DNA from: Nemertoderma westbladi
Lineage: Eukaryota; Animalia; Xenacoelomorpha
NCBI GenBank assembly: GCA_032718475.1
Contig: JAUCBJ010006078.1
Coordinates: 1-64,000, forward strand
DNA length: 64,000 nt
Direction: 5' to 3'
Made by a program: the position numbers and the translations under genes. The notes below the pieces were generated by a model, which ran no database searches, was not told the origin of the DNA, and saw only the letters and a list, made by a program, of their open reading frames with translations. Of the stretch, positions 22,559 through 54,949 are shown in pieces (position 1 is the stretch's first letter; every line of letters begins with the position of its first letter).

Positions 22559-24354
22559 GTGTATATTGTTATTATCCATTAATCCGTCAAGGATAGACAT
22601 TAATTCGATGGATCGAATAATTAATGTATGTTTAGGGGTAAATAAGAGCGTTGTGAAAAGGGGCTGGGCTGTGATGTCGGATGGGGTGGTGTAGAGTGAA
22701 GATTCATCTAATATAATGTAATCAATGCTATTCTAACAACTATCTTTCTTGACTTACAGTAGAATGATAATTACCTCCCATGCAAATGTGCATATTGCAA
22801 TAAAATATGAATATAATCATAAAAATAGCAATGATACTCTCCGCCTGATTTAAAATTCTTCACTATTTTAGTTATATCATCCATCAACAGCCTTATTAGT
22901 TATTTGTTATAAATAAACATAATATTTCACTCCTTCTTCATAGGCCTCTACTGCTGTGTTTCAAATTCAGCCACTGCACTGGTATGGCTGCGCGCGTTTA
23001 ATGTTATATAATTAAAGTATCCTCGTTTATTCTTGATCGTTAATATACAAGGGGCCTTCTGTAATTTAATTTAATACGATGTATAGGGCCTCGTATTTGC
23101 TGCGTATATTTGTGTATATGGGGAGGGGGCGAGGGCGGGGGGAGGGGGCTTTCACTGTGCTTTAACATTATATCTTATTTTTTTTACAACTAGTATACAA
23201 ACAATACCTGCGTTACAATATCAGCTCACAAGCAGGGCTGCTTTATCGCCTAGGCTCAAAATGCCTCATCCTTGGGGCCATGGCTTAAAAGAGGACACTA
23301 AATGTTAAAATAACCGATGAGTGGATGAGAAATTCAAAAGGCCCCACCCGGCACCTACCTTTCGTCTTAATTCCAAAAAGTTTAAATTTTCGCTCGCTTT
23401 GCTCGCGTTTGCTTCTGGCCAAACCTATTTTATAATACCATTATGGTGAAAATTATAACCAAAGCCTAAAAAAAAGCAATAGTTAATCACGAAGAAAGTT
23501 AGCAAATTTCGTCAATTTGTTTTATTTAGTTAAGCGGCTCTCTAGTTACATAACAAACATTCGAGAACACTAAATTATGTAACATTGAGTAAGGCAGTAT
23601 CAGGAGTTGAAATGTACAAAAATTGCAATCGCAGTAACCATGGAAGCAATAATATAGTAAAATACTACAATTCTATTTATTTTGAGCAACACTTATAAAT
23701 AAAATTACCGCATTACATGGGAAAAAAACTTAAACATTTTTTCTTCAGTATTCTCTGGACCCAACAACCTCGCTGACACTCGCTAAATAAAATGCCTCGA
23801 GAATATTGTAAAAAAGTTCTACATTTTTTCCCCATGTAATAAATAATTATTTTTCAACAATTCTCTATCGTTTTCTAACATTATTATTTTAAAATAAAAA
23901 ATTTAAAATAAAAAAATAAGAGCCATTTTTCACTCAACTTACAACACAAGCTTGTTATGTTATACCATAATAATAACTCTATATACAGTAGGCCTACGTC
24001 ATTGTTCATAAAAGAGCACTATATAGCTTTACGGCACGATTGATTTTGTCAAATAACAAAACGAGGGCCGTAATGGCTTTAAATTGCTAATTATGAACAA
24101 TGGATAATTTTATTTATTTGTGGGGATTTATTTGTAGTTATGCACTTAATCTTTCTAGATCAACCTAATAATGACGTGATGAAATTCTTAAATACATAAT
24201 AAATGTATGGCGTGGGGACATAGGCCTACTGAGAAATAATGTCGCACAACGGTATAAAGTTGGAAACTACAGTATGTCGCACTGGCGATTTGGTAGTGTG
24301 ACTTTTATTCCATACAAATAAATAAAAATATGATATCATATTTATGTTTTTCAG

Positions 24355-25109
24355 TTATATGGCAAACTTTGACTGGATCATTTAAGTGGGTGAGTGCTGG
24401 AAAAGCTGGTGTTTGGAGTATCGGCACTAATGATGCAATTTTCTACCGAGAAGGGACATACGGATCATGCAGTATTGGTACGAGATGGATAACTATCCCT
24501 GGGTCGCTCATCAATATTGCTGTTGGAAATGATATTGTTTGGGGAGTAAATGTAAACAATTACATTTACTGGCGACATGTCAGTCAGCAAAATCCAAGTG
24601 GCAGTGCCTGGGAAGAGATGGACCATGTTCATCACCTTTCATGGATAACCGTTGACTCAACCAGCAACGGAGTCTGGGGTATCAATCGTGATAAGCTTGT
24701 GTTGAAAAGATTAGGTATATCGGCCTCAAATCCTGTTGGAACATCATGGTATCCTATTACTGGTGCTAGCATGGCAGACATCAGCTTCGGACCAGCAGGG
24801 CTTTGGGGGATCAACTTAGGATACGCTCCATACTACATGCAAGGCACCTTTGGTTCCAATAATAATGTTGGAAGCTTTACAGGATGGGCAGCTGCAAACT
24901 GGCTAACGATTAGTTCAGGAGCAGATGGTACTTTATGGGCTACAAAGACAAACCATGAAATATACACAGCCACAGTGGAAGAAGGGAATATAAATCCAGT
25001 TTGGGAACGTGTAGGGAGTGGACTGAGGCATGTGAGCGCCAGTGATTGGAATGATGGGGTTTGGGGGGTGGATAATTCCGACTCGATAAAGTTTAAACAA
25101 TGTTCTTAA
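24355..25109 (+). CDS. Host gene last coding exon: tectonin / tachylectin-1 / fish-egg-lectin-like beta-propeller
   Basis: tttcag| phase-1 acceptor; ~250 aa with about six repeats of W..(I/L).G.L..(I/V)S.G...VWG(V/I)N....I(Y/F); TAA stop ends at 25109. Confidence 0.9.
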
Positions 25110-28594: not shown

Positions 28595-31488
28595 TTAAGC
28601 CCCACTGTGTACCCCCATTCACCCTATAGTTTCATTTTTTAACCCTACTTTTGGCACTTTTTTGAGACGTTTTTTGAAAATTACATTTCATAAATTACAA
28701 TTTGCAAAATAAATATTTTTGAGTTACACCTGTTTTTTGATGTTCGCAATTAGATGGAATTCAAATAAAATAAGTTAGAAATTTCAAACTTGTTTTTTCG
28801 GCAAGTGCAAAATTTTGGTAGCAGCACCAAATTTGAAAATACGTCGATTTTGTAAATAGGTTGTTTGAACCTTTTTTTTTGCGCAATATGGTTTTTTTGG
28901 GATTCTCTTTTCGATTGAATGTTTACGAGTTGCACCATATATATCAATATTGTATTTTTCGATGCTATGTGCAAAATTTGAAGCAAGCACGAAATTTTAA
29001 AATCTATTCAATAGTTAATTTGATTATGACAACTTATCTCTTGCATTTTAGAGGATTATGGGGGTTCTGAATTCAATGGAATAAATAATTATATAACTAG
29101 ACATCTCAAACTTACAAATGTACAAAATGTGGTCATAGCGCAATATTTTGAAACCTATCAAATATATAAATTTATCGTGTCACCTTGTTACTTGCGTTAT
29201 ACAGTACGGGTTTGTGATGTTTCTGAATTCAATTGATTAAGTAAAAATTAAGTTTTCTACACGAAATTTTCAAATTGTATTTTTCGGCGGCTTAAAATCA
29301 GGCGGCAAATCGGCGACAAATCAATAGATACAGTAGTATCATCTTGTTTCTTGAAAAAAAATGTTTTATTTTTCTACTCCATCCCCATTAGGTATTCAAA
29401 ACCTCCAAAATTCTAGCTACTGTTGATAGAGAGGGAAATTCTGTATATAAGGGGTTAAATTTCTATGACAATTGGATTTATAGATTTGGAGAAACGTGTA
29501 CCCAAGTAAGTACACTACGAGTCGCGATATCTCGAATGGTGTAAATGAGGACCCAATTTCACAACCGCATTAGCTTATATATATAATACAACCTTTAGTA
29601 TAGGTTTTGATCGACTGCTCTTTTCTGTTCTGCTGTAGAAAATTCTGAAATTCCTGGATGAGACGGGATCGTAGATCCCGACCGGGTTAGATTAAGTATG
29701 GGTCACCGTTCTGCTGGGGCTGTTGAGCTACTGGTCGTTTTGGCCCAAGGCCGTCGGGGAAAATAACAGAGTTTAGTGTTTCTCAATATTAATGTTCCGA
29801 ATGATAATAGCCAGAATCAGTATGGAATGAATATCCTGATACAGAATGACAGCAGAAAATACACAGATATTAATTGGTGATGTTGGTGGCGGTGATGGTC
29901 ATAAACTATGACCGGTCTGCAACTCTGTGATTAATGAACTGACCGGTAAATCAGTAATACAGAATAGTCATAGAATAGAATAGTTATTGGTTTCACCTCT
30001 TACTCTACTTGGCCTTCTGTACCCAGTGAATGCTTTCCTATCCCTGTTCACGTGCTTCCCTCCCTGCTATTGCCTAATATAATAATTGTCACTTTGGCAC
30101 CTCCAAGGTGGTTTGACCTCTCATCTCTCTCTGTGGCTTTAGGGCTTGTGTCGCCCCCCCCCCCCCCAAAGTTGGTTATGAGACGAGATTACTATTGGTA
30201 ATCTCGTATCCCCAACTATATTAGTAAAATGCCACTGGTCCCATTTTCGGGTGGATAATGTAATGGAATTGAATCCGCTTACACTCCCACCCATGCTATC
30301 TTCCCGGTGAGAAGATAGCATCAACCTTAAGTGCGCTTCAATTCCGCTGGAACCCAATCTAATATCGGGTGTGGGGTGGAGTTCTTTTCTCGGGGTCGGC
30401 TTTCCAGACCGCCTCCCTGGATGTGTTATTACTACCCATCCTTGGTGCAATCGCGAGCTAAGTTGCACCAAGGCATCTGATGTCTCTGTATTGGACAATT
30501 GTGCTCTCTCCTCACACAATTTTCTACAACCTCACTCTAATTTTCCTCACGTACCTCGTTGTCCCTTACTCTCACTCTCATCTTCCTTACGGACCTCGCT
30601 GTCCCTTAGTCTCACGTCGATCCCTTGGGACTCTTCCCCTCTCACTGCTCGCTCCCCACACTTGAATTGCACTCCTTTCACTCACTCACGTGTCAACACC
30701 TCCTCTCCATACTTCCCCCGATTCTCCATTTTCGTTTTCATTCTCCATACACTTATTGGGTCCCATGCATGTGCGCATCATGTTAGTGGGATCCGTCTAA
30801 GTCTTGTCCTACATATCGTACATATCATATGAGTTGTATATAATAATTAATTATTATATTATGTATTATATGTATTATATTATATGCCCGTCTATACGAC
30901 GCATCTTAACCCCCCCCCCCCTTTCAGAGGTGATATGACCCGTCACTCCCGGTCCCGTCCGTTCATGCTCTCTCCGCCTTTCACTTCCTTACTAACCTTT
31001 CCACCATCACGAACTTTTCCTGCGCTCACCCAATTGGTGGGGCCTTACAAAGGCTCAATTTAAGTGAGTGCCGTTAAACAAGATGTTACAATATACCATA
31101 CTCTACTTTCTTACTATGTGGCGCTCTCAGTGCCCACAACTTATAACTCTTATGGTACTATGTACCCTACTACTTCTATGGTATACCTACATACCATACT
31201 CTCTACTCTCTTACTTCTAACTCTTATGGTACTATGTACCCTGCTACTCTCATGGTATGTCTATATACCACACTCCCTATTCTCTAACTTCTAACTCTTA
31301 CATTACTATGTACCCTGCTACTACTCTCATGGTATGTCTATATACCACACTCCCTATTCTCTAACTACTTCAATGGTATGCCTATATACCATACTCTCTA
31401 CTACTACTATTTCTATGGTATGCCTATATATCATAGTCTCTCTACTACTTTGTGCTACGTACTATCTACTACTAATACTTTCTACTAT

Positions 31489-33288
31489 TGTAAGGGTCCA
31501 GTAGTATACCGCTTACCAGATCCTAGTAACGATGTATCTTACTATGAGACTCTAGTAATGTATACGGGCTTGTACAGTATCTGACAACAAATCCCAGTCC
31601 AGGATATCTAAACAAACAGATACAATACACAAACGACTACTGGCGAGGAACAGAGCCTAGTATCTATTCTATGTACGTGAGCGGGTTTAATGCCTACGTA
31701 CTAGACAAAAGGATACCTGTCCTCTAACCGGTGAGGCAGATGTACAGTTACAGTAACAGACCAAACTCACGGGAAAACAATCCCCGCGCAGCGAATCCTA
31801 ACTATCACTGACAGTCCTAAATACAGTAACTTGCCGCGGTGTGATTTATATGGTTTATATACGAGCTAGGTGGTTAACAGACCTAGTGTAACAATGCTGA
31901 TTACCCCTGTCTAAATCAGCCTAAAAGGTCGTGCCTAAATGTAAGGATAACTGATCCCCCTGTACGAAATCAGTCTAAAGGGTCAGGCCTAAATGTAACA
32001 ATACTGCTGGACAGAAATCAACAGTTTAATAACGAAAATGAAATACTCTATCTTGCCGCAACTAAATCAGATCCTAATTTTACAAATACAGATAATTTCT
32101 ACCCAAAATAATGTACAGTGCGCTATAGCTAGTAGAACTTTAAAGGGCAATATGTTTTAGGGCGTGTGTGTGTGGGTGTGTTACAAATAAAACAATTTCG
32201 TGTAATTCCTTTACTAGGTTTTAGTGATTTTCTGACTAAATGATACCGTGCGCTAGCTACTAAAATAAACTAGTCGCGTTTGTAGAACTTTATACTCACA
32301 AATGACGTCAAAGCTCTCTCCTTCCTATCCACAACCCAATGGGCAACCACAGTGTTAGTAACTACACCCGTGATCGGCACTAATACCAGATTCTGGTTGT
32401 AAGATAAGGAATAGGGGTTAATTGCTACCGTACGTTAGCTGATCTGGTATACTAATTTAATTCTAGAACTTTGTTGCTGCGGTAGTTAGCAGCAATACCT
32501 ATCAGTACGTGGCAAGGCGCGGTAGGATATTAATAAACCTCCATAGGCCAAGCAGTGTGCCGGTAGCAGAAATACTCCTTGCCTGATCAAATAGCTAACT
32601 CCAGACAGGGGGGGGGGGGGGGGTACTAATGTACGTTCTACAAAGCGAACCGGTACCAAACAGTCAGTGCTACGAATCACTAAATTATGGAACATATGCT
32701 GTCCGTACCTAATATGTACTCGCGTACTGACGAATGGCAATAGTTCGCACCTGTAGGAAGTACAGGTTAACCCAGGGGTTCGTAGGACTGACAAAGGGGG
32801 GGGGGTGTTTCTGTCTGAATATAATTATTTGATCCTAAATTTGCGGCGTCCAGTACGGCGTCACGCTTACCCTGATCTATAAGTCTTACCTTCTCACAAA
32901 GCGGGCGCTGCATAGCAAGTGGAGTATTTCGAAGGGCAAAGGGGGTGCGCGGTCAATCCAAATGTGGGCGCTAGTGTGTTGTGGACATCTCTTCCCTGCG
33001 TTGCTTACCGCCTAACGGTCTAGGCTGCCATCTCCCTGATGTTTGGCTGTCCCAAAGTTGGACCAAAAGAAAACATGTTCAGGAATTTGCAGTATATTTA
33101 CAGTTTTTACAAAGGATTTATCAAAATAAAGTTTCAACAAGAAACCGAAATAACTAATAACAATTTAGAATAACGTTATAAGGAGAATTTTACAAAGTGG
33201 TAAGAAGTCGTAGAAGGTGATAACCGAAGGCAAACCGGCCTTTTATACTAAATATCGCACATGGAAACTAAACAGACCCATGAACACA
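31489..33288 (-). repeat. 3' LTR of the family 1 element
   Basis: Matches 46749-48563 apart from ~3 substitutions and a few indels; PPT-like GGAGCGGTGAG|TGT on the minus strand at 33299-33289. Confidence 0.85.
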
Positions 33289-33943
33289 CTCACCGCTCCA
33301 TGAAAACAGTAAGTAAGACTGTTTTCACCAATCGAAACATAAAATATTTACAAACTACTTCTAAATCTACTAGTAGGGCCTAAAATATAAAATATAATCA
33401 CTATCTAATTATTGCATACTTAATATTGCAGATACGGCGTAAATACAATCGATCGTACATACAAATACAAATTTACGAATTAACTTTAGTGCCTAAAATA
33501 CAAAAAAAAGGCTTTCGGTTATCAAGGTAAGCAAATTAAACAAATCAGAACAAACAAATCGAACAAATAAATCAAAACAAATCAAACAAATAATTCAAAC
33601 TCTTTCGATAAATCTTTATATATTGTAAATATACCTAATAAACCTTCACCAAATTAAATCGGTCCAAATATAATATAAACATAATGCGCTAATAACTTTC
33701 AATAATGTCCTCCTGACGATCTAATAGTTCGTCCTGCTGGTCTGGATATCTTCTCCTGAGCACCAATTGCTAACGGTAGGCTCGCAAGCCTTCCTTTCCA
33801 TATCTCGCTCCTCCAAACCCAACATTCAAACATAACGTCCAATATAAATATCCAAATATAATATCCAAATATGATATCCAAATAAAATATCCAAATAAAT
33901 ATCCAAAATCGGTAGGCTCGCAAGCCTTCCTTCCACTCGCTTC

Positions 33944-34735
33944 CTATTCCTTCGCTGAGCGGGCTCGTCCACGTCCTCTAGTGCGATTGGGGGGTGGTCG
34001 AGGTCGAACTGGGCTCGGACTTCGGCGTCGAGTCGTCGGTGGTTCCAAAACGCTAGGAAAGGGGACGACGGGAGTTTCGCACATCCGTCGTGCGCTTAAT
34101 CCTCTAAATCCTCGTCCGATTCCAACTGTCGGCTTAACATCGGATCGAGTTTCTACAACGCTAGGAGGAAGTCGAAAGGGTAGGACCGTTCCGTCCGTTG
34201 ACACCTCGCTCTCTGACATCGTTTGAATCCTAATGGGTTCAGTCAAAGCGTATCCTGTCCCTCCGCGTGGTTCTCTAGCAAGGGAAACCGTGCCCCGAGT
34301 CATCCGGATTTGTGACTTCGACGTCGTCCTCTCGGCGACATTTACTATCTTCTTAATCTCTTGTCTGGCCTTCTGGGCTTTGAGTATACGAAATTGCTGA
34401 TCATCCTGTGGGTGACGCGTCTTCTCTGCTAACGGCGTGGCCTTGAAGCCAGTCTCACGCAAAACGTCGGTCTCGTCCAGAATGCACGAGGTTACGCGTT
34501 TGTGATAAAATGCGCTCCGGTATGCCCAAGCTATCGAATGCCAGGCTCCTCGATTCCGCTGTTCAACTCGCAGTTTATCGAATTCTCCGGCGGTAATCTT
34601 GTTCACCACAGTTTGAAAGTTCCAAGTATTCTTGTTGTCGGGTTGCACTTGTAAGAAATAGTCCCGCACAACTTTGAATCCACTGTCCAACGGCAATATA
34701 TCCAATACCTCCAACAATTCATCGTACTGAGGCAT
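33944..34735 (-). CDS. Accessory ORF4 of the BEL element, 263 aa, unknown function, Arg/Pro/Ser-rich basic tail
   Basis: Intact ATG-stop ORF between integrase and 3' LTR; tail RRRSPSPVRPRPPPNRTRGRGRAR; no signal peptide or TM segment seen. Confidence 0.7.
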   Translation of the reverse strand: MPQYDELLEVLDILPLDSGFKVVRDYFLQVQPDNKNTWNFQTVVNKITAGEFDKLRVEQRNRGAWHSIAWAYRSAFYHKRVTSCILDETDVLRETGFKATPLAEKTRHPQDDQQFRILKAQKARQEIKKIVNVAERTTSKSQIRMTRGTVSLAREPRGGTGYALTEPIRIQTMSESEVSTDGTVLPFRLPPSVVETRSDVKPTVGIGRGFRGLSARRMCETPVVPFPSVLEPPTTRRRSPSPVRPRPPPNRTRGRGRARSAKE

Positions 34736-34760
34736 AGCCGATACATATCCTTACATATCC

Positions 34761-36065
34761 TTATATCATAGGTTTACCAGTCCAATTGGTCGCGATATCG
34801 GTGTCGGTCTCAAACGTCCCAACTCCGATCCATAATCGAATCATTTTCGTCAGATATCCTCGCAAGATACAAGGTGCGATATCCGTCCCCGCGCGATCCA
34901 CTTCCTTAAAGTCCGTGATATGTGGAGGCACGTTGCGTACGATTTTTTGAACTATTACTTTACGCAACTCGGTTGATTCTAACACATCACAGAAGGTGAC
35001 CGATGGGAGGAAATCCAGGTTCGAGATGATCTCCGGGTGTTCAACTATAGGGATCTCGTAAGTTGTCTCCTTCCGGGTCGGTATACTAATAGGAAAACTA
35101 GTTGGTCTCGCAACCGGTACTATCGCTCCAGTAGAATGGGGCTGAGGTTCTCGCGTCATCTCGACATGAGGTATCTGTAGTCTCTGCGACAAACGCTGAG
35201 CAAAGGTAATACTATCGAAGAGCTCGGGTGTCATCTCCTTGGGTTCGGTTTGATCGTGGGATATCCAATAGAATGGTAGGCTCGCGAGCCTTCCGCCGAA
35301 CTCCTCGATCTCGCCTTTCTCGTACGCCTTGTACGCCCTGTAGAGGCTCAAAGCTTCCCGTTTCTCTTGTGTCGACTTATTAGACTCGTCCACTACCATG
35401 CTGTAGACGTCTGGTTCGACTAATTTAGGTTCGTAAATAACGATCTCACCCGCGTTCAGTCCACTCATTTTAAATGAATGATACGGATTTGTCAAAGGGT
35501 ATCCGCCTTCTTGGTAACGTAGACTTTGGTGGTATGAACATCGCGCTAATATCGGCTCGGGGTTCTCCGAGTTCAACCGCATAGGAATCGCGTTGTCTTG
35601 CACGCGCATACACGCTCCACATTTATAAAACAGTTTGTATACGGAAAACGCGTCCTTGGTCTCTGGATCCGCTCCTCGAGCGCGTCTATAAAGATGCATT
35701 CCTTCAAATTCGTCTCTAGCTGCAGGTAAGGGTTCGTTTACCGTCAAATATTGCAGCGTATGATACAATCGGCGTATTTCGGTGTCTGGATCCTCGCAAA
35801 TGTCGCTAGCGTCGCATAACGCATCGTAGGGATATAACGCATTGTATTCCGCGCGTAATTCCTCCGTTCTTTTGTTGTATGCGTCCAACCGCTGTCGCGT
35901 AACATTTGGGTCCGCCTTGGATTTAGCGAGCTTGGCCGTACTCCTAGCCATACTCTCCACTCCAAACACACTAAAGTTTTTAGCTCCATAACGATTGAAT
36001 GGCGCCTGGTGCTCTTGTTCTTGCGTAAACCCTTGACGTAACTCTTTATACATCTTCTCTGCCAT
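34761..36065 (-). CDS. Accessory ORF3 of the BEL element, 434 aa, unknown function
   Basis: Intact ORF in the env position, same strand as pol; CGAC...CSYH possible zinc site; no hydrophobic TM segment. Confidence 0.75.
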   Translation of the reverse strand: MAEKMYKELRQGFTQEQEHQAPFNRYGAKNFSVFGVESMARSTAKLAKSKADPNVTRQRLDAYNKRTEELRAEYNALYPYDALCDASDICEDPDTEIRRLYHTLQYLTVNEPLPAARDEFEGMHLYRRARGADPETKDAFSVYKLFYKCGACMRVQDNAIPMRLNSENPEPILARCSYHQSLRYQEGGYPLTNPYHSFKMSGLNAGEIVIYEPKLVEPDVYSMVVDESNKSTQEKREALSLYRAYKAYEKGEIEEFGGRLASLPFYWISHDQTEPKEMTPELFDSITFAQRLSQRLQIPHVEMTREPQPHSTGAIVPVARPTSFPISIPTRKETTYEIPIVEHPEIISNLDFLPSVTFCDVLESTELRKVIVQKIVRNVPPHITDFKEVDRAGTDIAPCILRGYLTKMIRLWIGVGTFETDTDIATNWTGKPMI

Positions 36066-36798
36066 TGTATACGAATATATGCGGTTACATATCGTTACAT
36101 TTCTACTAGATGAAGCACAAAATAGAGGTTAGATGTGAGGTGACTTAGAGTTTGTCGGCCTTTGGCTCAACTCTGCTCTAAACCCCAACCCATTTTGCCT
36201 AATGATTTCGGGTTCGCGTGATTTCGCACTGGCTCCTAATCCAAAATTGTGCCGATAAAAAACGAATTCCGGGTAAACTAGCCGCGAGTCTAAAATACTC
36301 ACCTTTTAATTTCCCAAACTACGTTTCCCAAGAAAAATAGTGCAGTCGAGAATTAATTGGTCTAAATAATAGTAGACACGACTACGTAGAACAAGGCCGA
36401 TTTTCTTTTTTCCAAAAAAAATTTATCGGTAGGCTTGCAAGCCTTCCATCCGCTCTTGTCCTCCCCAATTTTAATTTTATCTAGCTGTATTCTAGAATTT
36501 GCTTTCACTGGAGAATCGTTTTTCTTAAATTTAAATCCAAATAAATGGATTTGTCTAATAATTTTGAAAAATTGTCTCACTTGTGGGTTCCAAGTGGAAT
36601 TCCATTCCTACTGTACACACAATCCCGCTCCTATGTGATACATAAGGGTACTACCCTCCATGTTCACGTATAAAGACAATGGAATTCCACCGCTGTCTCT
36701 ATCTACAGTGAAGAGGATTACAAATGCACGTACAGTAATACAAATGCAAATAACTAAAATACAGTAGGTCTATGTGGCGGCCAACAAAGGTCCCACAT

Positions 36799-37908
36799 CT
36801 ATTTACTAATATTGGGTGGAGATTTGTAGTCTCCTGTCTCGTTTCTAGTCTCCTCAAGGAGTACGAGACGTTGTACAGGCCTATCTACGGTACGTCCGTC
36901 GATAGTCCTTACAGTAACTGTCCTCACTACACCAGATGTAGGGTGCATGGTCAAAATGACTCCAGTCAGCCAAAACCGTCTTTTCAGATTAGCTTCAGCC
37001 AATAAAACATGGTCACCACTTCTTAAACATCGGGTATTTAGATACCAAGAAGTTCTGGTCGAAATAGAGGGCAAATAATATTTCTGCCATATTTCCCAGA
37101 ATTTATTTGCAAGCAATTGAGTGATTTTCCAAGCCTTGTTGCCGTATCCGTCACTATCAACGGGTACCGAAATGGGCAACAATGTCGTCGGCGCGTGCAT
37201 AAGCAGGTGCGCTGGTGTCAAGGCAAACTGTACGTCGTTATTGTCTGGGATCAAAGCGATCGGTCTAGTATTTAAGATTGCTTCGATTTCTATTAGTAAC
37301 GTCGTTAGTTGGTCGTCTGTCAAAATGTGTTGCGTCGGTACGACTTTAGCCATAGCTGTCTTTATTGAGCCAATCAGCCTTTCCCAAACGCCGCCTCTCC
37401 CCGGACTGTCTGGAGTATTGAAAAACCAAACAATACGGTGAGGACGTAGTTCCTCGGAAATCTGGTTTTGGTCCAATTTTCTCAAAGCTCTGGTTATTTC
37501 GTTCCGTGCACCCACAAAGTTTGTCCCTTGGTCGCAGTATATGGATTTGACCAATCCACGTCTAGCGATAAATCGCCGTAAGGCTAGGATAAAGGCATTG
37601 GTGGTCAAGTCTGTCACTCGCTCTATATGGACAGCTCTGCTGGCCATGCAAGTGAAGATCAATCCCCAACGTTTTACCTGTACCCTTCCGCGTTTCGCGA
37701 TCAGAACAAACCTCGAACGTAAGTGTGATAGACAGTGGTGTCTACCTACGTGTTTGAGTTGTACATGTGCGTCCAGTATCATGGCGCGCTGTAACTCATG
37801 GTGTTGCGGTATGATGATAGGATACCTAAAGTCAAGTGCAAAGTCGATGTTTTGGAGTCTGGACTTGTGACAAAGTAAGCCCTGGTAAATAATCGGACTC
37901 CAACTCAA
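36799..37908 (-). pseudogene. BEL integrase (DDE core plus C-terminal domain), internally deleted
   Basis: HVQLKH, WGLIFTC..RAVHIE, CDQGTNF, GGVWERLI, ILNTRPI; the CxxC and first catalytic Asp (GxDxxGP) region is missing; frameshifted from RT-RH. Confidence 0.85.
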
Positions 37909-40907
37909 AATCGGTGAAGACTTAATCTGTTTACCTTGTTTGATCGCTGTGAACTCTCGTGCGAATATCGCAATTGATAATGTCGAATGATATCAACTTC
38001 ACAGTGGCCAATTTCCTTTAAGGTAAGTCTTCTAGGAAAGTCGCGTTTGCCTCTGGCATATTGTCTCAATCGTTTGAGCCATGCTAACTTGCGGCACGCG
38101 TCAGTCCAGGATCTAGTTAGGTTCACTATCCTGTCAACGTAAGTGTTAGTGACGTCATCGGGTAAGGTGTAGTCGTAGTGTGGATACTTGTCTGGACTTG
38201 GTAGGCCCACGGGCCTTCCGGTAGGTTTGTCTGAGTCCCCAAGTACGTCAATCTCTACGGTCTTACCTTTACCGTCCGCACCTAATGTGTCGACTGGCAG
38301 TAACGGTTTCAACTCTACAGTGTCAGTGTGCTCCTGTGAGCCTGTAAGCTTCCTAACCTTAGTCACACGTTTACCTGTAGGTAAGTCAAGTACCTTCTTC
38401 GAGCGGAGTGTAATCCCTGTGGCCACACCTTTGTCGTCCAGAGAAGTCAAATTCGGTAAGTCTCTAAAGGTCCGCTCCAATGGGTCTTCTAATGGAGTGT
38501 CTAGTAGACAGTCCGGTGAAGCGTCTGGTGAACAGTCTGGCGAGACGTCTGGTGAGACATAGCGCGGAACATCCAGCGAAATGTCTTGTCGTTGGTCCCA
38601 AAGTCTGTCTAGCGTAACTTCCGTCAGAAAGTCTGGTTCAAAGTCTGGTCTAAAGTCTGGTGGACAGTCTGTCGAGATGTCTGGTGGAAAGTCTGGTGAG
38701 ACGTCCGGTAGACATTCTGTCGAGAGTTCTATCAAACAATCTGGCGAACAATCCGGAGAACAATCTGGTGTCGCTTCTGGTGAATAATCTGGCGAGTAAT
38801 CTGGTGAACAATCCGGCGAAACGTCTGGTGAAATCTCCCGCGGAACATCCGGCGAAGGATTCGTACAAGCGTCTGGTCGAGTGTCTGGCGAGACGTCTGG
38901 CGTAATGTCAGGTCTGGCGTCCAGGTCATCAGATTTCGTCCGTCCTTTTTTCCTCTTGACCTTGGCGTTGGCTTTCGCTTTAGACTTGACAACCTTGTCG
39001 AGTTTTATCTCGGCACCCTCTGGTATGGTGTTGGTCGTCGCGTCGAATAACGGTGGCCATTCGTCTGATGGTCGCTGTAGGAAATCGGGTCCTCTAAACC
39101 AAAAGGATTTATTGTCCGGTTTACAAAAGTCAAGTGGTTGCATCCCCCGTGACGCGATGTCACCTGGGTTCAGCTTCCCTGGACAGTGACGCCAATCTTG
39201 TTTGAGCGACCGGTCTAGTATTTCAGCCCGTCTGTTGGCTACGAAAGTCTTGAACTCAAATGCTTTGTTGTTTATGTACCAAAGTACCAACGTCGCATCC
39301 GTCCAATACGTGACCTTCAAGTTAGCCTCCAGCTCGCGTTGAACTAGACTGATAATATCGGTGGATATCGTCCCGGCTTGCAGCTCCCCGCGAGGTACAG
39401 TCATATACTTCAATGGCATTGTTCTAGCCCTTGAAGTAACGAGAGATACATCGTAGCTGTCCGATGTCACTTGTCGTCTAAGGTATAAAGTAACCCCCAA
39501 TCCATCCTTGCTAGCGTCACTAAAGCTGTGAAGCTCTAAATCGGCAGGAAAGGTGGTTTGCAAAGGAAAGTATACCCTTGGTATGGTATAGTCTTGTAGG
39601 AACGTCAGTTGGGCTTCCCAGTCCCTCCATCGCTCAGCTAACTTTGCTGGGATGGGATCGTCCCATTCCAGTCCGGCTTGCCAAATGCTGCGGAGTATGA
39701 TCCTAGCATGTAGGATCACTGGACTAATGAAACACAATGGGTCATACAATCGACTCATGGTCGATAAGCAAGTTCTCTTAGTGAGAGGTCTAGTCTGGTC
39801 GTTGGACCTTACACGTACCCTAAAATTGTCGGTGTTAGGGAGTATGATCCTAGCATGTAGGATCACTGGACTAATGAAACACAATGGGTCATACAATCGA
39901 CTCATGGTCGATAAGCAAGTTCTCTTAGTGAGAGGTCTAGTCTGGTCGTTGGACCTTACACGTACCCTAAAATTGTCGGTGTTAGGGTCCCAACTAAGTC
40001 CTAATACTTTGGTCGTCGGCAGAGGTTCTAGGTCTAAGTCCAAGTCACCTCCACTGCGATCCGTCGGGTCAAATGAGTTCACCAGTTCGGGTTCGTTGGA
40101 AGCGAACTTCGTCAGATGAAATCCGCCCTCAGCGAGACAATCCTGGAGTTGGTGTGCTACGGTAGTAGCGCGCTCCAAGGTGTCACAACTCTTGAGGCCG
40201 TCATCCACGTAGAAGTCTCGTTCCACGGTCCGAACTACTTCTGGGTCAAATTGGTCTCGTCTGTCCAATGCTGTCTGCTTCAATGCGTACATGGTGCAGT
40301 TGGGGCTGTCCCTGGCTCCAAATACTCTTACCTGCATTTGGTAAGTTTCTGGCGGAAGTTGTAAGTTTCCGTCCGGATACCAAAGAAACCTCAAACTGTC
40401 CCTGTCCCGCTCCAAAGCCTTAACCTGGTGAAACATGGCCTCTACGTCACAGGTGAAAGCCACTTTGCGTTGTCTAAAACGCATTAGGACTCCCATGAGG
40501 TAATTATTCATATTCGGCCCGTCCATCAGTTCGCTGTTCATAGACATCCCTTGGTAAAGCGCAGCGCAGTCGTTGACTACACGCACCTTGCCAGGTTTGT
40601 CCGGGTGTCGAACAAAATGATGTGGCAGGTAATATGTCTGGTCTGTGGTTACCTCGGGATTTAACATCCTAATGGCGTATCCCTTTTGGAGATACGTCTG
40701 AAGTTGTGCATTGTATTGCATATGGGCCGTCTCGTCTCGCAACAATCGCTGCCTTATTGATTTGAGTCGCCTCAAAGCAAGCGGGTAATTGTTAACGAGT
40801 TTAGGTTGTCCATCGCGCCACAACATACCAACCTCATAGTAGCCATTCGCGGTCTGGCGAATGGTATCTCTCATAATATTTAATGACCGTTTTTCCTGTT
40901 CTGACAT
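37905..40907 (-). pseudogene. BEL pol: reverse transcriptase and RNase H
   Basis: YYLPHH, DVEAMFHQV, FYVDDGLKS, LHSFSDAS, NPGDIASRG; 147-bp in-frame tandem duplication (39692-39988) and an SPDx repeat tract. Confidence 0.9.
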
Positions 40908-43900
40908 AGCGGTCTCGTAACTACCAGGTTCTGCTGAGTCCTGTTCCGTTCAGTCAGCAGTCGGTCAAGCGCTGCTTGCACTGCGCCATGGTCCTCGTCC
41001 ACGTCTTCGTCCGCTGCGGTGGCTAGTGTCAATGTGTCTGGTAGGCTCGCAAGCCTTCCGGTGTCACTAGTCGGCGTCGAATCGTCGTGCGGCGGTTTGA
41101 CAACCTTTTGATCTGTCGGTAGGCTCGCAAGCCTTCCAAGATCAACGACCGGTGTCGAAGCCTGGTGGGTGGGGTCAATGACCTTCGGATTTTTCGGTAG
41201 GCTCGCAAGCCTTCCAAAATCCTCGTTCATCGAGTCATCCATGGCAACAACCCTTAGGTCTTCAGTAGTCAATACAACCTGGTCTACTGCAAGTAGTTGT
41301 AAGTCAGAGGTCCGTATGGTCGTGTCCAGATCGGTTACGTCAGTATCGGTGGCGTCTGCATTAGCGACGCAGGTCTGTCGTAGTGCCGTCCGTACAATTG
41401 GACCACAGGAGTGTGAAGGAGAATTATCTATCGTGTTAGTCAATAAACTACACGTACTCAAAACGTCGTCCTCCTGGTCACTTACCTCTAGTGAACGTAT
41501 TGGTGCTCTAGTATACCAACCTATGGGAGTTCTACATGCGTAGGGGTTGCCCGCTGTAATAACAGATGGGCGTGTCTCCCATACCTGATGTAAGTTAAAC
41601 TGGTCTGTCCCAATTAACATCGCAATAGAACGATAATTGACAGGACATTCCGGTATTCCAAGGTGTCGGAAATACTTACGATCTTCCGGTGATTGCTCTG
41701 GCACAGGGCCGAGCAAGTTACTAAAGTCCTTCGTAGCTGCAAAGGTCAAATTTCTTACTGGAAGTAATGAGCGCTCCACCTTGCTGTGTTCTGCTTTGGA
41801 AAGAAGAGTGTCTAAAGTTAATTTTACTCTCGTCACAGGAATCGCTCTCTTACCATGCATGCTGCTTACAGTATACTGAGCAGTCTTACCTTGACTCATG
41901 TCCGTAACTACGTCGGCTACTTGTTCGTCGACATAGCTATGCGATGACGCAGAGTCTAAGATGGCGTATATACGCTTGCTCCCTCGGGTTCCGGTAATCT
42001 TTATAGGAATCACGCTAAACCCTTTCAATTGGTTCTGTGTGAGGAGCGTTATCGAAGGCTGTTCCTCACCTGCATGCACGTAAAAAGTGTCGTCTTCCTC
42101 CTCGTCCTCGTCCGATGATCCTGACTGATCCATACAGTCGGTATAAAAGGTACGGATCTCGCGCGGCGCACGCTCCTTATAAAGCGCGTCGCATCTAGCC
42201 GCTTTATCTGGATGCTCTCGTCGAAAGCGTCTGGTCGGAGTATGACTAGTTGTGTGAAGCAACGCGTCATGGTTACGTCCACACAGAGAACATGTATCGT
42301 CGCTCGGGCAATCCTTCCGGACGTGTCCTGGCTTCATACATCTCCAACAGGAATCTAGAGATCGGATTTGGAGTCTCCTCTCCTCGATCCCTAACTCTTT
42401 AAAAGCGCGACATCCACGTAGTTTATGTCCGCTATGGTTTCTGCCGTTCCGCTCGCAGTATGAGCATCCCACAAAGTCCGCCGGCAACTGTTGTCGTGGC
42501 TGCGTGGTGCCGATAGGCGTCAGAACTTTAGAAGTCTCAGTAGGGGTGGCGTAAGTAACGGCTTTCGCGTTCGTCGGAAATGGTTTTGTCCGAGTCGGCG
42601 CAGAAACAGCTATCCCTTCCGCCGCGATATGGTGATCGGTATAGTTCGATAGAGTCTCGATCACGGCCTCCCGTGAAATAAGTTGATAGACATCGGTGAG
42701 TTTTAATAACCCTCCGGCCTCTTCACGCTGGTACTCGATGCGTCGCCATTCTCGTCGTAGTCGATGGTGAAGTCGACCGATTATTCGAATGAGAACCGTC
42801 GGTGCGTTAGCGTACTCGAGTTGTCCAATGGACCGTAAAGTCCCTATAGCGTTCTTTATTTCGTCCGCGAGTCGTAAAAGGTCGATCGGTCTCGAAATGT
42901 TGCCTCCTCTGCAGAGGTCTTCAATGATGGATTTAGCCATGGCGACGTTACCGCCGTAAATCGAATACAAACGGTCGTACGCCAATTCAAAGGCATCGGG
43001 AACTCCAATGAATGTTTCTGCTAATCGTTTCAGCTCACCAGACAGAACTTGGAGCAAGTAATTAAACTTCTCCGTCGAGGTGAAAGCACACTTAGCGATC
43101 TAGGACTCTACGTAGTCTACCAGTGTGCGCCAGTGTTTCGCGTTGCCAGAGAACTTCGGCGGTTGCTGTGCCGGTAATCCGTGTCTAGCCGCGAATTTCG
43201 CAATCTCGCTAACCAAATCCAACTGTCCGCGTCCTTGTTCGGTGGCGTCGTCCAGTCGCTCCCTTCCGTGCGTTGTTCGTCGGTAGGAATTATTAACGGG
43301 ATCTTCTTCTCGATGTGTCGGAGTCCGTCTAGTCTCCTGTTCTCTCCTCGGTGGTCGATGTTGTCTAGGTTGTTCCAACTCCACGCTGGTTCGTGATCGA
43401 TCCGACGGTTGCGCTTCGAGTCGCTCTTCTATCTGAGCTAGTCGGTCCGCTACAGGTCGCATTATTTCGGCGAGTCTGTTGGTGCTGATCGCTTCCGCTG
43501 GTTGCAACGTGGGTTTCTGTTGGGGTGTTTCTCGAGGTGGATTGTCGATGTAGGGATTCGTCGACCTCTCCTCTCGTTTGTAATCTTCCGCCGCTCCAGT
43601 ACGGAATATTTCCCGTTCCGTCGACTCCGAGTCGCTAGATGAGTCGCTGTCGTCCGGATAAGGTGGCTGGCGGGTTCGTGTCCGGCGTATTATTCTAGAT
43701 TTCGTCCGTTGCGGTCCGGAATCTACGGCTCTCCGTTGTTCGGTAGGCTCGCAAGCCTTCCACGAAGTCGTAGGTCTCGCTATACGTTGTCCGATCCCGT
43801 GGGTACTACCCACATCCATCCTCCTCCGTAATTCGGTAGGCTCGCAAGCCTTCCACGAAGTCGTAGGTTGCGTCGAACATTGTGTCAACGGTCGAGTGAA

Positions 43901-45688
43901 ATAGTCGGGTTTCGTAGTCGGTCTATAAATAACTGGATTTGCACAGCACGTCACAGGTTTAACTTGTAATGGTTTACTCACCTGTTTAATGGTCATAAAC
44001 GCAGGTTCCTCTCTTCCTACAAGTAGACTACGACTTACTGTAGGTGGACTAGTTACGTTACCTGCTAAAATCGGCGATGAAGTCGCCCTAGGTTACGGTA
44101 TTTCTGTCACAACAAACCTGTTGCCTTGCGTCGGATGCACAGGCGTTATTCCCTTAGGTTTCGTAACGAAGACCGGTTTTATCGGATTCGTGGGTTTGAG
44201 CATAGGAATAACTTGGGGAAAACGTTTACAGTAATCCTCGACGAACTCCTCTCCTCGATCTATCGCTCCCACACTTCCTTCCTCGATCCGCTTCTGTATG
44301 CCGCGATATCGAGCTTCCATACGATCCAGGGCAGACAAGTCGTGTCCAGTCCGCGATCTTATAGATCTATCTCTCGCGTCGAGTTCGAGGTCCGCTTGCG
44401 CGTTCGCTGTCTCGCGCGATCTACGATTCAATTCGAACTGTAGTTGCATCTCCCTTTCGCGTCGATTCGCTACTTGTTGTTGTGCCGCTAACTCCGCTTC
44501 CTGTATAGCTAAGCGTGCGTTTATTTGTCGTGCCTCCAACTTAGCGCGAGCATCGGACGCTGCCTTCTTCCGTGCTAACTCAGCTGCGTTTACCGCCGCA
44601 ACTCGTACTAGCTCGTCGGCTGCCGTCTGTCGTGCTAACTCGTCCGCTGCTGCTGCCGCGGCCGCTTCTTGCGCCAAGTTTTCCTCCAATCTGCGCATTT
44701 CCGAAGCTTCGAATTCGGCTTGCGCCTTGAGTTGCGCAATTCTTGCTTCGTCCTCTCTATGTTGTTTCTCTCCTTCGATGGCGATCTGTGCCATCTGGTG
44801 TTGCGCTTCTTCCTCGGCGACTTGTTGTCGGCGTGCAACCTCCTGTTGTTGTCGAGTAATTCCAGACGCTGTTCTACTAACGTCGCCAACGTCGCCAACG
44901 TCGCTCCGTACGCTAACGAACGATCTATCCAGTGGTGGATGTTGGTAGGCTCGCGAGCCTTCCGTAGTGAGAACTTCCGTCGTCCCTCGCGGTTCGACTT
45001 CCGGTTCGTCGATCGGTACGCCGCATCTACGAAGAAAATTGGTCAGCGTTTCCAACCTTCCGTCCAGGCAGTAGAGTTCTTCTTCCTCTTCGGGTTGTAA
45101 CAACGCGTCCGAAACTGACTCACCTAGCAGTTGGTCAAACTGCTCCTGTTGAGCCAATCTTATTACTGACTTAAACTGGATAATGCTTTCTCTCGCACTT
45201 ACTAATTTATCTACTATCTTTACCTGAGTAAAGTTGTCGCCACGCAACTCCGCAAGTTCGTGTAAACCTTTAAGTTTATCTACGGAGGCATGTACCCTAC
45301 TTTCTATCCTTACCTGTAAGGTGTAGAACTCGTATCTCAACATCGGGGCAGTTAACTCGCGTAAAACGCGAAAACCTTCTCCGAGGTTCCGAGTAATCTG
45401 GGCCATGGGTCCTCCTATACTTCTAATAACGTTCTCCTGGCTTCCAGTCGAACTTACCATGTCCGGTTCCCGTGATCTAGTCTGCGGGACGGTAAGGAAA
45501 TCTTCGATTCTGCCGTCGCCACGCGTTGCGGCTTCCGGTATTTCCGTTCGGGGTACCGGCGACGCAAGCGGTGTGACATCGATGGAATCTCGGGTTCTCC
45601 TTCTCGGTTCGTCTACTGTCGATCTGTCCGGGTCGAACGAGTCATAGTCGGTAGGTGGGTATCTCGTTGAACGGGGTGTGTCACTCAT
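40880..45688 (-). pseudogene. BEL gag-protease in a single frame with two in-frame stops
   Basis: ORFs 44093-45688, 43100-43996 and 40880-43057 share a frame, separated only by TAA (44093) and TAG (43100); PKFSG..W capsid-like region, three Zn knuckles, ILDSAS protease motif. Confidence 0.88.
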
Positions 45689-46748
45689 GTCTTATTATAT
45701 ACGTCAAGTACGGGTAATAAAATGTCAAAGTGTCTGAATGTTGAAGTGTCAAACTTACCTTGGTATATATAGTATATATATACCCTAACCGGTACAAATA
45801 AATCAACAAGTCAGAATGTCGAAATGTCAAAATGTCGAAATGTACAAATGTCAAACTTACCTTGTTATATATATATCATATATATACCCTAACCAGTACA
45901 AATAAACTAACAAGGTATATAATAAAATAAGTAGTAATCTAGCCTACCGGCTAAATTTGTACGAATAAATGAGATAACGATATACGTTAACAAAATATAG
46001 ATCAACAAGTACGAATAATAGGCTAAACAGCAACGTCTAACGGGAAAATAAGTACCAACAACACTACTAATAGACAGTGAAACCCACAAATTTTGAGTAC
46101 TACTGTGCTTTCTTAAGTTTGAACGACGCGAGTCATAAAACTTACGTTCCTTTGATCTTCCAGTCGTACAAATTCCCAAATACAAACCGGACGTGGGTCT
46201 TTCCATTTTTCGGCGGCGCGGACGAATTTATTGTCTCCCAAACTTTGCGAAAAGCGGTCTAATCCTCGAAGCGGTCCAGAAATGAGTCCTTGAGTCCTGA
46301 AAAGGTCGAAGGTGAGAGTTTTACTTCTACGCTTACGAAAAATCTTCCTAGGTACCGATACAAATTGGTCTTTAAACCCTATGTACCTTTTCAAGTACCG
46401 AAAAGTAACACCGCACACACACGGCGTAAAACAAAGTGCTACAAACTAACTGTTAGCTAGTCAAATATTAAATACGAAAGTACTAGCTACCCTAAAAGCC
46501 TACTGAAGCAGGGGACGTTCTAAATTACTAAATTTACTAACCTTAAATTTTAAATATCTCCTACTTTCAAATAGCTAGCAGATCTAAACAATACTATACA
46601 CTAATTTCAGAATTTGTATAATATACTTCCTACTGTTGTCAGATTGTAGTGCGCACGCACTACAAAGCGTACAGATCTAAACAATACTATACACTACGGT
46701 AGAAATACTATACACTAATTTCAGAATTTGTATAATAATACTTCCTAC

Positions 46749-48563
46749 TGTAAGGGTCCAGTAGTATACCGCTTACCAGATCCTAGTAACGATGTATCTT
46801 ACTATGAGACTCTAGTAATGTATACGGGCTTGTACAGTATCTGACAACAAATCCCAGTCCAGGATATCTAAACAAACAGATACAATACACAAACGACTAC
46901 TGGCGAGGAACAGAGCCTAGTATCTATTCTATGTACGTGAGCGGGTTTAATGCCTACGTACTAGACAAAAGGATACCTGTCCTCTAACCGGTGAGGCAGA
47001 TGTACAGTTACAGTAACAGACCAAACTCACGGGAAAACAATCCCCGCGCAGCGAATCCTAACTATCACTGACAGTCCTAAATACAGTAACTTGCCGCGGT
47101 GTGATTTATATGGTTTATATACGAGCTAGGTGGTTAACAGACCTAGTGTAACAATGCTGATTACCCCTGTCTAAATCAGCCTAAAAGGTCGTGCCTAAAT
47201 GTAACGATAACTGATCCCCCTGTACGAAATCAGTCTAAAGGGTCAGGCCTAAATGTAACAATACTGCTGGACAGAAATCAACAGTTTAATAACGAAAATG
47301 AAATACTCTATCTTGCCGCAACTAAATCAGATCCTAATTTTACAAATACAGATAATTTCTACCTAAAATAATGTACAGTGCGCTATAGCTAGTAGAACTT
47401 TAAAGGGCAATATGTTTTAGGGCGTGTGTGTGTGGGTGTGTTACAAATAAAACAATTTCGTGTAATTCCTTTACTAGGTTTTAGTGATTTTCTGACTAAA
47501 TGATACCGTGCGCTAGCTACTAAAATAAACTAGTCGCGTTTGTAGAACTTTATACTCACAAATGACGTCAAAGCTCTCTCCTTCCTATCCACAACCCAAT
47601 GGGCAACCACAGTGTTAGTAACTACACCCGTGATCGGCACTAATACCAGATTCTGGTTGTAAGATAAGGAATAGGGGTTAATTGCTACCGTACGTTAGCT
47701 GATCTGGTATACTAATTTAATTCTAGAACTTTGTTGCTGCGGTAGTTAGCAGCAATACCTATCAGTACGTGGCAAGGCGCGGTAGGATATTAATAAACCT
47801 CCCTAGGCCAAGCAGTGTGCCGGTAGCAGAAATACTCCTTGCCTGATCAAATAGCTAACTCCAGACAGGGGGGGGGGGGGGGGGGTACTAATGTACGTTC
47901 TACAAAGCGAACCGGTACCAAACAGTCAGTGCTACGAATCACTAAATTATGCTGTCCGTACCTAATATGTACTCGCGTACTGACGAATGGCAATAGTTCG
48001 CACCTGTAGGAAGTACAGGTTAACCCAGGGGTTCGTAGGACTGACAAAGGGGGGGGGGGGGGTGTTTCTGTCTGAATATAATTATTTGATCCTAAATTTG
48101 CGGCGTCCAGTACGGCGTCACGCTTACCCTGATCTATGGGTCTTACGGCGGGCAAGGGCGTCGAACAAAGTCTTACCTTCTCACAAAGCGGGCGCTGCAT
48201 AGCAAGTGGAGTATTTCGAAGGGCAAAGGGGGTGCGCGGTCAATCCAAATGTGGGCGCTAGTGTGTTGTGGACATCTCTTCCCTGCGTTGCTTACCGCCT
48301 AACGGTCTAGGCTGCCATCTCCCTGATGTTTGGCTGTCCCAAAGTTGGACCAAAAGAAAACATGTTCAGGAATTTGCAGTATATTTACAGTTTTTACAAA
48401 GGATTTATCAAAATAAAGTTTCAACAAGAAACCGAAATAACTAATAACAATTTAGAATAACGTTATAAGGAGAATTTTACAAAGTGGTAAGAAGTCGTAG
48501 AAGGTGATAACCGAAGGCAAACCGGCCTTTTATACTAAATATCGCACATGGAAACTAAACAGA
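46749..48563 (-). repeat. 5' LTR of the family 1 element (outer end anomalous)
   Basis: Direct repeat of 31489-33276. Confidence 0.85.
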
Positions 48564-49844: not shown

Positions 49845-50091
49845 TGCAGGACATTGCTTTCGCCGTGAGGACCAGCCAGTGCATAATCTTGTACTTTGGC
49901 AGCCTCATGGAGTGAATAAGCATGGTGGACAGCCCATGACTTTCTTGAGACGCATCTTAAAAGACACTGGCCTTAAAGATGCGGATGATCTAGCAAATGT
50001 CATGGGTGATAGGGAGTTGTGGCGGTGCAATTTTGTTGACAAGCCGGCACAGCATTCTTAAAAATGCAGCTGCAATGCAGCATGCATGCTA
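49845..50091 (+). mobile_element. RTE LINE 3' fragment, copy 3, inserted next to the YVDD motif of family-2 RT
   Basis: Closely matches 8905-9142 in reverse; gcta flanking duplication. Confidence 0.8.

Positions 50092-54870: not shown

Positions 54871-54949
<79 letters not shown>

Follow-up and report, generated by a model that had tools for sequence, protein, structure and literature searches.

A putative accessory region lacking envelope features, and a repeated 20-nt hairpin motif, in a ~17.1-kb BEL/Pao-type retrotransposon

Two open reading frames, ORF3 and ORF4, lie on the minus strand of a ~17.1-kb BEL/Pao element, after the integrase and before the 3′ repeat; the region that they occupy very probably constitutes a functional accessory gene of this BEL/Pao family. 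The sites listed in a comparison of copies support purifying selection on ORF3/4 at the level of the family, and a common nucleotide motif supports a tie between the region and the rest of the element. The window (the whole stretch of 64,000 nt that was analysed) carries one copy, in which the two frames are as follows.

34761-36065, minus strand: ORF3, 434 aa, orphan and soluble; C-terminus likely shortened in the window copy
33944-34735, minus strand: ORF4, 263 aa, orphan; either a gene in its own right or the C-terminal portion of a longer ORF3

An earlier sequence-only reading had reported open frames of 434 and 263 aa, 25 nt apart, and this was verified at the coordinates above; both frames are free of internal stops. 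The chance of such an open frame at its own base composition is 5e-11 per site for ORF3 and 4e-6 for ORF4. Moreover, among the six frames the annotated one is the best match to the codon use of gag-pol, for ORF3 and ORF4 alike.

On its sequence features, the element is assigned to the BEL/Pao (Belpaoviridae) LTR retrotransposons. Its other main parts are listed here.

46733..48563, minus strand: 5′ long direct repeat (LTR-like, ~1.8 kb), 97.1% to the 3′ copy; ends approximate
40880..45688, minus strand: gag-protease, with DUF1759, CCHC knuckles and protease LDSA; broken by in-frame stops at 44093 and 43100
37905..40949, minus strand: RT-RNase H, with YVDD and Peptidase_A17; both ends frameshifted, a 147-nt tandem duplication at 39692-39987, PDCS-type repeat
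36799..37992, minus strand: integrase with DUF5641; internal deletion at 37700/37701 in the window copy, no CxxC remaining
31470..33276, minus strand: 3′ long direct repeat (LTR-like), matching the 5′ copy; ends approximate

Pfam profiles identified Peptidase_A17 (E 2.7e-46) and DUF5641 (E 5.4e-19) in pol, and DUF1759 in gag at E 2e-5, which is marginally short of its cutoff. The motifs LDSA, YVDD, FSDAS and CDQGTNF/GVWER follow one another in the order PR-RT-RNase H-IN, the BEL/Pao arrangement, and the long terminal direct repeats expected of BEL/Pao elements are present (31470-33276 and 46733-48563). A 118-nt tandem lies across the upstream edge of the 5′ repeat and suggests that this repeat may reach to ~48750 or further. 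Inspection by eye of the TG...CA ends of the element spotted no PBS (tRNA-Arg or tRNA-Gly), PPT or target-site duplication, and no relatives of the RT or the integrase were found in viral or prokaryote contigs. The stops, frameshifts and deletions previously ascribed to gag and pol could all be located: in-frame stops interrupt gag-pol at 44093 and 43100, the frame changes near 40.9 kb and again near 37.9 kb, and the 147-nt duplication and the integrase deletion (37700/37701) add to these. Since the 5′ and 3′ repeats differ by 3 substitutions per 1777 aligned nt (together with 5 indel events), most of these lesions are likely older than the last insertion. If so, the window copy would represent a defective lineage that was copied in trans.

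Other copies were sought in contigs from three DNA runs of organism A and one run of organism B, aligned to positions 33700-38450; four organism-A DNA runs contain about half of the words of this region. The numbers of contigs aligned per run were 5784, 2440, 128 and 9, and all 30 bins of the region were covered in each of three organism-A runs. Identities in run X1 spread from below 90% (417 contigs) to 99% or above (1891 contigs). The ORF3/4 element is a large, diversified, multi-copy family. The 9 contigs of run X5 were not counted as evidence of transcription, the RNA origin of that run being a guess. The summed depth of ORF3/4 against integrase was 0.47 in X1 and 0.58 in X3 and ran in the opposite direction in X4; depth is not to be equated with copy number, and no weight was placed on these ratios.

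The rows examined comprised 40 of 360 variants, 12 of 17 indels, 15 of 30 joints, 24 of 459 loose ends and 32 of 8423 pieces. Thirty-four of the 40 variant rows fall in coding frames and the six non-coding rows were left out; 11 sites make up the selection test for ORF3/4. Segregating sites were separated from private ones at a cut of 95%, which was chosen after the data had been seen. This dN/dS-type check across copies, small as the sample is, came out in favour of the accessory module that had been proposed earlier: all five listed segregating sites in ORF3/4 are synonymous (0.305 expected, P 0.003), as are four out of four when the cut is set at 90% (P 0.009). For integrase and pol, 10 of the 17 listed segregating sites are synonymous (P 0.014). 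Differences private to the window copy in ORF3/4 are non-synonymous in five of the six cases listed, as neutrality predicts, and the window copy is drifting neutrally in this region.

The more divergent pieces point in the same direction as the segregating sites. Thirteen of the 32 pieces listed are ORF3/4 pieces that differ by at least 8%, and these hold 324 other letters and 3 gaps over 2427 nt. Five listed pieces of integrase/pol at this level of difference hold 113 other letters and 4 gaps (summed by hand), and the single divergent non-coding piece listed holds 14 other letters and 9 gaps. The ORF3/4 region is retained, with few gaps, in copies that are 10-20% diverged. ORF3 has lost a single base, at 35525 or 35977, in some contigs, and larger deletions affect ORF3/4 in others; a derivative without 34075-35502 and 35565-35792 was found in two runs. 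Such deletions, the neutral drift of the window copy and the absence of homologs are what would be expected if ORF3/4 were non-functional, its frames open by chance or recent passengers. However, the open-frame chances given above, the gag-pol-like codon use, the synonymous bias among copies and the retention at 10-20% divergence all speak against this, and we regard it as very improbable.

The sequence-only reading had gone further, setting two intact ORFs against a broken gag-pol. At 4-6 lesions per 8.9 kb, a stretch of 2.1 kb is free of lesions with P 0.24-0.39, so that the contrast is weak and falls short of significance. Nor did the description of ORF3 and ORF4 as intact survive comparison with other copies, which leave the window sequence at 34768 and rejoin it at 34752, with the ORF3 stop in between.

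34753..34767, minus strand: 15-nt stretch absent from copies breaking off here; contains the stop of ORF3 together with one copy of the 10-mer next to it

The doubled sequence that had been seen over the ORF3 stop and the spacer is indeed there, as a 10-mer pair at 34742-34763. Among the loose ends listed, the match to the window ends at 34768 in at least 10 contigs of X1, which continue into other sequence. The match ends at the same position in at least two X4 records (19 and 20), with 6 differences over 470 nt and 40 over 268 nt, respectively. In the other direction, at least two X4 contigs among the loose ends listed enter window sequence from other sequence at 34752. Records 19 and 20 of X4 together account for a depth of 136.5 out of 191.2 summed over the adjoining bin, a figure to be taken as a rough guide. 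A control is provided by loose ends of X3 and X5 at 37700/37701, which coincide with the integrase break that lacks the CxxC. Because the ORF3 stop and the 10-mer copy both lie inside 34753..34767, the junction reads as a deletion scar, and this 15-nt stretch is likely the mark of a deletion with templated insertion. The break point at 34768 is common to a close and a distant relative, so by parsimony the window form is the derived one. ORF3 and ORF4 may derive from a single, longer gene. More generally, 'intact extra ORFs' inferred from one copy can arise through deletion.

The proteins themselves are not typical of env, in agreement with what had been noted from their sequence. No TM segment was found in ORF3 or ORF4, where the maximal 19-residue hydropathy (KD19) is 0.96 and 0.78, respectively, and no signal peptide in the 697 aa of the two, with N-termini that are hydrophilic as judged by eye; ORF3 and ORF4 together have only 9 Cys. 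The CxxC..CxxH reported for ORF3 is present as C149-x2-C152-x23-C176-x2-H179 (35621-35529) and makes CxxC-x23-CxxH a candidate Zn site. Its spacing resembles that of TFIIS-type Zn ribbons or THAP; neither identity had support from Pfam. The basic RRRSPSP/RGR tail reported for ORF4 is likewise present: the protein ends in RRRSPSP/RGRGR, rich in Arg/Ser/Pro, and with 10 Arg its final 30 aa exceed every other stretch of that length in the element in Arg content. Residues 5-17 of ORF4 match a regular expression for an NES-like leucine pattern; this expression also fits 9% of shuffles and, additionally, two gag segments.

Relatives of either protein were sought widely. ORF3, the only one of the two compared with 1.84 billion protein representatives, had no match among them, nor in a word-indexed protein search, PDB, Pfam, IMG/VR, metagenome contigs or the atlas. 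ORF4 had no match in the word-indexed search at near or longer lengths or in IMG/VR, and only chance-level rows in PDB (best E 1.7) and PHROGs (best E 0.14). The PDB row, a match to EBV gH, was dismissed as chance, and a single atlas cluster matching ORF4 at 0.75 is likewise at chance level. Pfam holds no family for ORF3 or ORF4, whether whole proteins or parts were used. Single-sequence AlphaFold models reached pLDDT 33 and 42 and are unusable; the Foldseek searches made with them, which returned nothing at E <= 0.001, are therefore uninformative. No resemblance to fusogens of class I, II or III was found for ORF3 in PDB or for either protein in Pfam, with the E 1.7 row as the best for ORF4. 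Taken over fold, profile, nucleotide and protein searches, no known env or host gene was matched, the fold models being unusable.

These results bear on the possibility that ORF3/4 was captured from a virus or a host, perhaps as an unusual env with its anchor in the deleted stretch, and that the hairpins described below are unrelated to it. The region does occupy the position of env, with a predicted splice acceptor ahead of it, and the stretch likely deleted at the junction lies outside the analysed sequence; extracts of PMC9094657, moreover, describe the third genes known in BEL/Pao as captured fusogens. However, 697 aa with neither signal peptide nor TM segment and with 9 Cys only, the lack of a match (ORF3 against 1.84 billion representatives; word-indexed search; PDB, best E 1.7; IMG/VR) and a basic RS/RG tail, which suggests nucleus or RNA, make capture improbable.

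The strongest evidence in the locus is a nucleotide motif that extends across gag and pro in three codon phases.

33775..44963, minus strand: ten copies of the 20-nt self-complementary motif GGAAGGCT-YGCR-AGCCTACC (sense strand), found by pattern scan; starts, in plus-strand coordinates, at 33775, 33911, 35275, 36428, 41040, 41118, 41196, 43742, 43835 and 44944

All ten copies lie within the element and on one strand, with none elsewhere in the window, and the motif appeared in 0 of 100 shuffles even when 2 mismatches were allowed. They are found in gag, pro, ORF3 and spacers. Seven are inside ORFs, in codon phases 0, 1 and 2, which shows that the constraint acts on nucleotides; since the codon phases differ, conservation of a peptide (GRLASLP) was rejected as an explanation of the motif. 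The same orientation and the same asymmetry recur at six separate sites. The motif is also carried by tandem units of 78, 93 and 136 nt, and in four of four comparisons between units the core is identical (20/20) and the flanks are common at 8-22 of 29 positions. At 36428 the window copy has a deviant loop, and nearly all aligned contigs show the common loop there (row 36436). The four hairpins named in the sequence-only reading (36428, 33911, 33775, 35275) are present, and six further copies in gag and pro had been missed.

A stem with an A.A mismatch formed in nine of the ten local folds. In a context of 220 nt, mean pairing probability was at least 0.82 for seven copies and 0 for three, with which a neighbouring copy probably pairs. 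A scan of viral contigs for the motif gave 0 hits and no Rfam family matches it. Five single exact matches in metagenome contigs were set aside as chance, as they had no tblastn link to the element.

The hairpins could be dispersed packaging or dimer-linkage signals, read by the zinc knuckles of Gag or by RNA-RNA pairing, with ORF3/4 real and in a separate job, for example as a second nucleic-acid-binding particle protein or in counter-defence; we consider this rather unlikely. Basic RS/RG tails fit capsid-type RNA condensation, and that of ORF4 is compatible with such a role. The motif is self-complementary, its homodimer being predicted at -30.7 kcal/mol against -7.6 for the hairpin, and the Gag here has CCHC knuckles. 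Precedents exist in Ty1 RNA, which dimerises via palindromes according to extracts of PMC6844567, and in the multiple dispersed stem-loop packaging signals of RNA viruses and HBV, as excerpts of the literature describe them. However, the Ty1 dimer palindromes sit in the 5′UTR (same extracts), whereas the leader and LTR of the present element are without motif copies, and the copies are concentrated around and within the accessory region. Moreover, 16 near-invariant positions are tighter than the degenerate signals described elsewhere in those excerpts.

Alternatively, the motif could be recognised as DNA. The ORF3/4 product would then be a VANC-like factor that binds a specific sequence to counter silencing or to activate in trans, with a Zn motif that would read inverted half-sites. 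The dyad symmetry of the motif and its multiplication in tandem units with diverged flanks, as extracts of PMC5735166 report for VANC targets, would suit such a factor. So would the CpG content, since observed/expected CpG exceeds 1.15 in 7 of 64 one-kb bins, all of them in gag or the ORF3/4 region. However, CpG is not enriched (1.06) in the 41-42 kb bin, which contains three copies, the LTR promoter has no motif copy, and a symmetric DNA site would need neither a single orientation nor a constant mismatch. The coding position of seven of the ten copies also sits badly with the non-coding motifs of VANC in PMC5735166, so far as extracts show them. Overall, a DNA-binding role of this kind is unlikely.

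We tentatively prefer, at a confidence short of even, the reading that the ORF3/4 product is a trans-acting RNA adaptor, made from a predicted spliced RNA, which would act on the ten hairpins as Rev or CERV might, for nuclear export or for particles. The predicted expression route depends on the following sites.

45752..45863, minus strand: two predicted splice donors (MAG/GTAAGT; 45863 and 45761) in the leader, shortly before gag begins
36106..36132, minus strand: predicted splice acceptor (branch CTAAC, pyrimidine tract, TAG), placed 40 nt ahead of the ATG of ORF3

These two are the only MAG/GTAAGT donors on the sense strand of the element, and two or more arose in 0.04% of 5000 leader resamples; at least one acceptor as good as that at 36106 arose in 0.9% of 5000 spacer resamples. 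Splicing from the leader donors to this acceptor is predicted to remove gag-pol and seven of the ten hairpins. In-frame splice fusions of Gag to ORF3 via internal donors at 45316, 43984, 42072 and 41892 were checked by hand, and none is in frame.

Under the RNA-adaptor reading, the ORF3/4 product would be translated from the spliced RNA, enter the nucleus via its Arg-rich tail and bind the hairpins, which retain the A.A mismatch. Its leucine-rich signal would then lead to export of the unspliced genomic RNA, or to passage into particles. The protein would act in trans, so copies lacking most of ORF3/4 would still be able to spread, and the window copy would be a passenger with lesions likely older than its last insertion. 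The derivative that has lost most of ORF3/4, found in two runs, was counted in favour of action in trans, and the NES-like pattern and Arg-rich tail of ORF4 were counted as Rev-like parts. Several observations weigh against an RNA adaptor. Homologs, a family and a usable fold are absent for any function, and three of the ten hairpins would be retained in the spliced RNA. The predicted homodimer stability (-30.7 vs -7.6) is equally compatible with dimerisation or packaging, the NES expression fits 9% of shuffles plus two gag segments, and some copies have frameshifts (35525, 35977) or deletions in ORF3/4. HTLV Rex is a further export factor of the Rev type. For ORF3 and ORF4, no sequence homology to Rev/Rex/CERV-type export factors was found in the word-indexed search or PDB (nor, for ORF3, among the 1.84 billion representatives), so the comparison with Rev and CERV is one of 'works like' only.

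The novel non-env accessory module proposed in the sequence-only reading therefore stands in part. Its orphan and non-env character, the purifying selection at family level and the motif tie to the element argue for it; what has to be given up is the idea of two intact genes kept while gag-pol decayed. A bolder extension, which we hold to be possible but on the unlikely side, is a giant BEL/Pao family with its own complex-retrovirus-like circuit, in which one large orphan Zn/Arg protein from a spliced message would be paired with a distributed hairpin response element. If true, a distributed response element of this kind would have no counterpart for this group of retrotransposons in the literature searched, and its action in trans would extend to a swarm of defective copies. 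To our knowledge, the export and selection of unspliced RNA are understood for few LTR retrotransposons. The family offers a defined pair: an orphan protein on which purifying selection acts, and a 20-nt motif kept invariant in three reading frames.

Compared with known systems, the element resembles other BEL/Pao members in its gag DUF1759 and CCHC knuckles, PR-RT-RH-IN order, Peptidase_A17, DUF5641, terminal direct repeats and a third region where env sits. The ICTV profile of Belpaoviridae, whose replication it describes as poorly understood, gives genomes of 4.2-10 kb with LTRs of 0.2-1.2 kb and between one and three genes, of which env is the third (PMC8742986), and the 4.2-10 kb range recurs in extracts of PMC3118150. 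In contrast, the present element measures 17.1 kb with repeats of 1.8 kb, its third region is soluble and orphan, and it has a dispersed hairpin motif that is absent from the text of the ICTV profile (PMC8742986). In the literature searched, with most subscription journals and Repbase outside its scope, neither a third gene other than env nor a dispersed hairpin of invariant sequence was found described for BEL/Pao, and extracts of PMC6238403 mention neither. Additional ORFs in LTR retrotransposons are already known from extracts of PMC5408684, among them the ORF3s of bdelloid elements (GDSL esterase, DEDDy exonuclease), which are likewise non-env third ORFs after pol. However, those are recognisable enzymes and are not placed in BEL/Pao in these extracts, whereas ORF3/4 is without a Pfam family.

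VANC of the VANDAL transposons is also a transposon-encoded orphan protein with a short motif multiplied by tandem repeats, according to extracts of PMC5735166. There the transposon is a plant one and the motifs are non-coding DNA of 8-9 nt, whereas here a 20-nt hairpin lies mostly in coding sequence. Multiplication of the target by tandem repeats is found in both, but confinement of the motif to non-coding sequence is not, with seven of ten copies here in ORFs; no protein match to VANC was found in Pfam or, for ORF3, among the 1.84 billion representatives. In C. elegans, export of Cer1 genomic RNA requires CERV, an orphan protein that is made from a spliced RNA and has a Cys-rich loop (PMC10309623, in extract). 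CERV shares with ORF3/4 the status of an orphan LTR-retrotransposon accessory protein, a spliced RNA (predicted here), a Cys-bearing motif and a candidate NLS/NES, as far as the same extracts go. However, the exons of CERV are common with gag, whereas ORF3/4 lies downstream of the integrase, and the two have no sequence link. Extracts of PMC10309623 name no repeated RNA element for CERV, against ten hairpins here, and they report a demonstrated function, where that of ORF3/4 is inferred. HIV-1 Rev and its RRE, as described in the same extracts, provide a further parallel in an Arg-rich segment, a leucine-rich pattern for export (a candidate one here) and an RNA target that is structured and mostly intronic (as predicted here). 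Rev has no homology to ORF3/4 and is a small protein with one large structured element, whereas here a total of at least 700 aa would be matched with ten small, separate hairpins.

Over 1777 nt, 3 substitutions separate the long direct repeats that flank the BEL/Pao element (31470-33276 and 46733-48563), whereas gag-pol carries six lesions. Provided that the repeats are true LTRs and have not been homogenised, it is likely that the copy in the window arose from an already defective parent.

CpG content is uneven along the window. The observed/expected ratio exceeded 1.15 in 7 of the 64 one-kb bins, all of them within gag and the region of the orphan frames ORF3 and ORF4, and the excess in these two regions is also evident at codon boundaries. 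The ratio was approximately 1.0 in pol and 0.3-1.1 in the window outside the element. Features within the element are as follows:

33001-36000 and 42001-46000, CpG-rich bins (observed/expected up to 1.49)
36086-36100, minus strand, two minimal ATG-TAA start-stop frames between the predicted splice acceptor and the ORF3 start
38488-38856, minus strand, 12-nt repeat; between RNase H and integrase it encodes a long low-complexity insert of PDCS/PDVS type

The two ATG-TAA frames could reduce translation of ORF3.

Outside the element, the window contains the following:

1380-3170, plus strand, long repeat-rich ORF of 596 aa without a Pfam match
24297-25109, plus strand, host ORF with lectin-like Tectonin/Hyd_WA propeller repeats (E 3.6e-38)
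49315-51418, minus strand, second BEL/Pao pol of the window, unrelated to the first and surviving as a relic with Peptidase_A17 and aspartyl protease
54567-56393, minus strand, long repeat-rich ORF of 608 aa without a Pfam match
56428-57960, plus strand, RT ORF (RVT_1, E 2.6e-22)

A segment of the sequence at 54-56 kb is found again, inverted, at 26.7-28.3 kb. The pol relic shares 24-40% with pol of the first element, and a motif scan of the window found no copy of the 20-nt hairpin motif in it.

In other copies of the element, the stretch that separates the two 3′ hairpins (33775-33930) varies in both length and sequence; the joints here are anchored on the hairpins themselves, which are retained. 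Separately, a derivative lacking 34075-35502 and 35565-35792 (window 34074-35793) was found in two DNA sequencing runs, X3 and X4, its two joints being equally deep in X4. This derivative looks like a non-autonomous subfamily.
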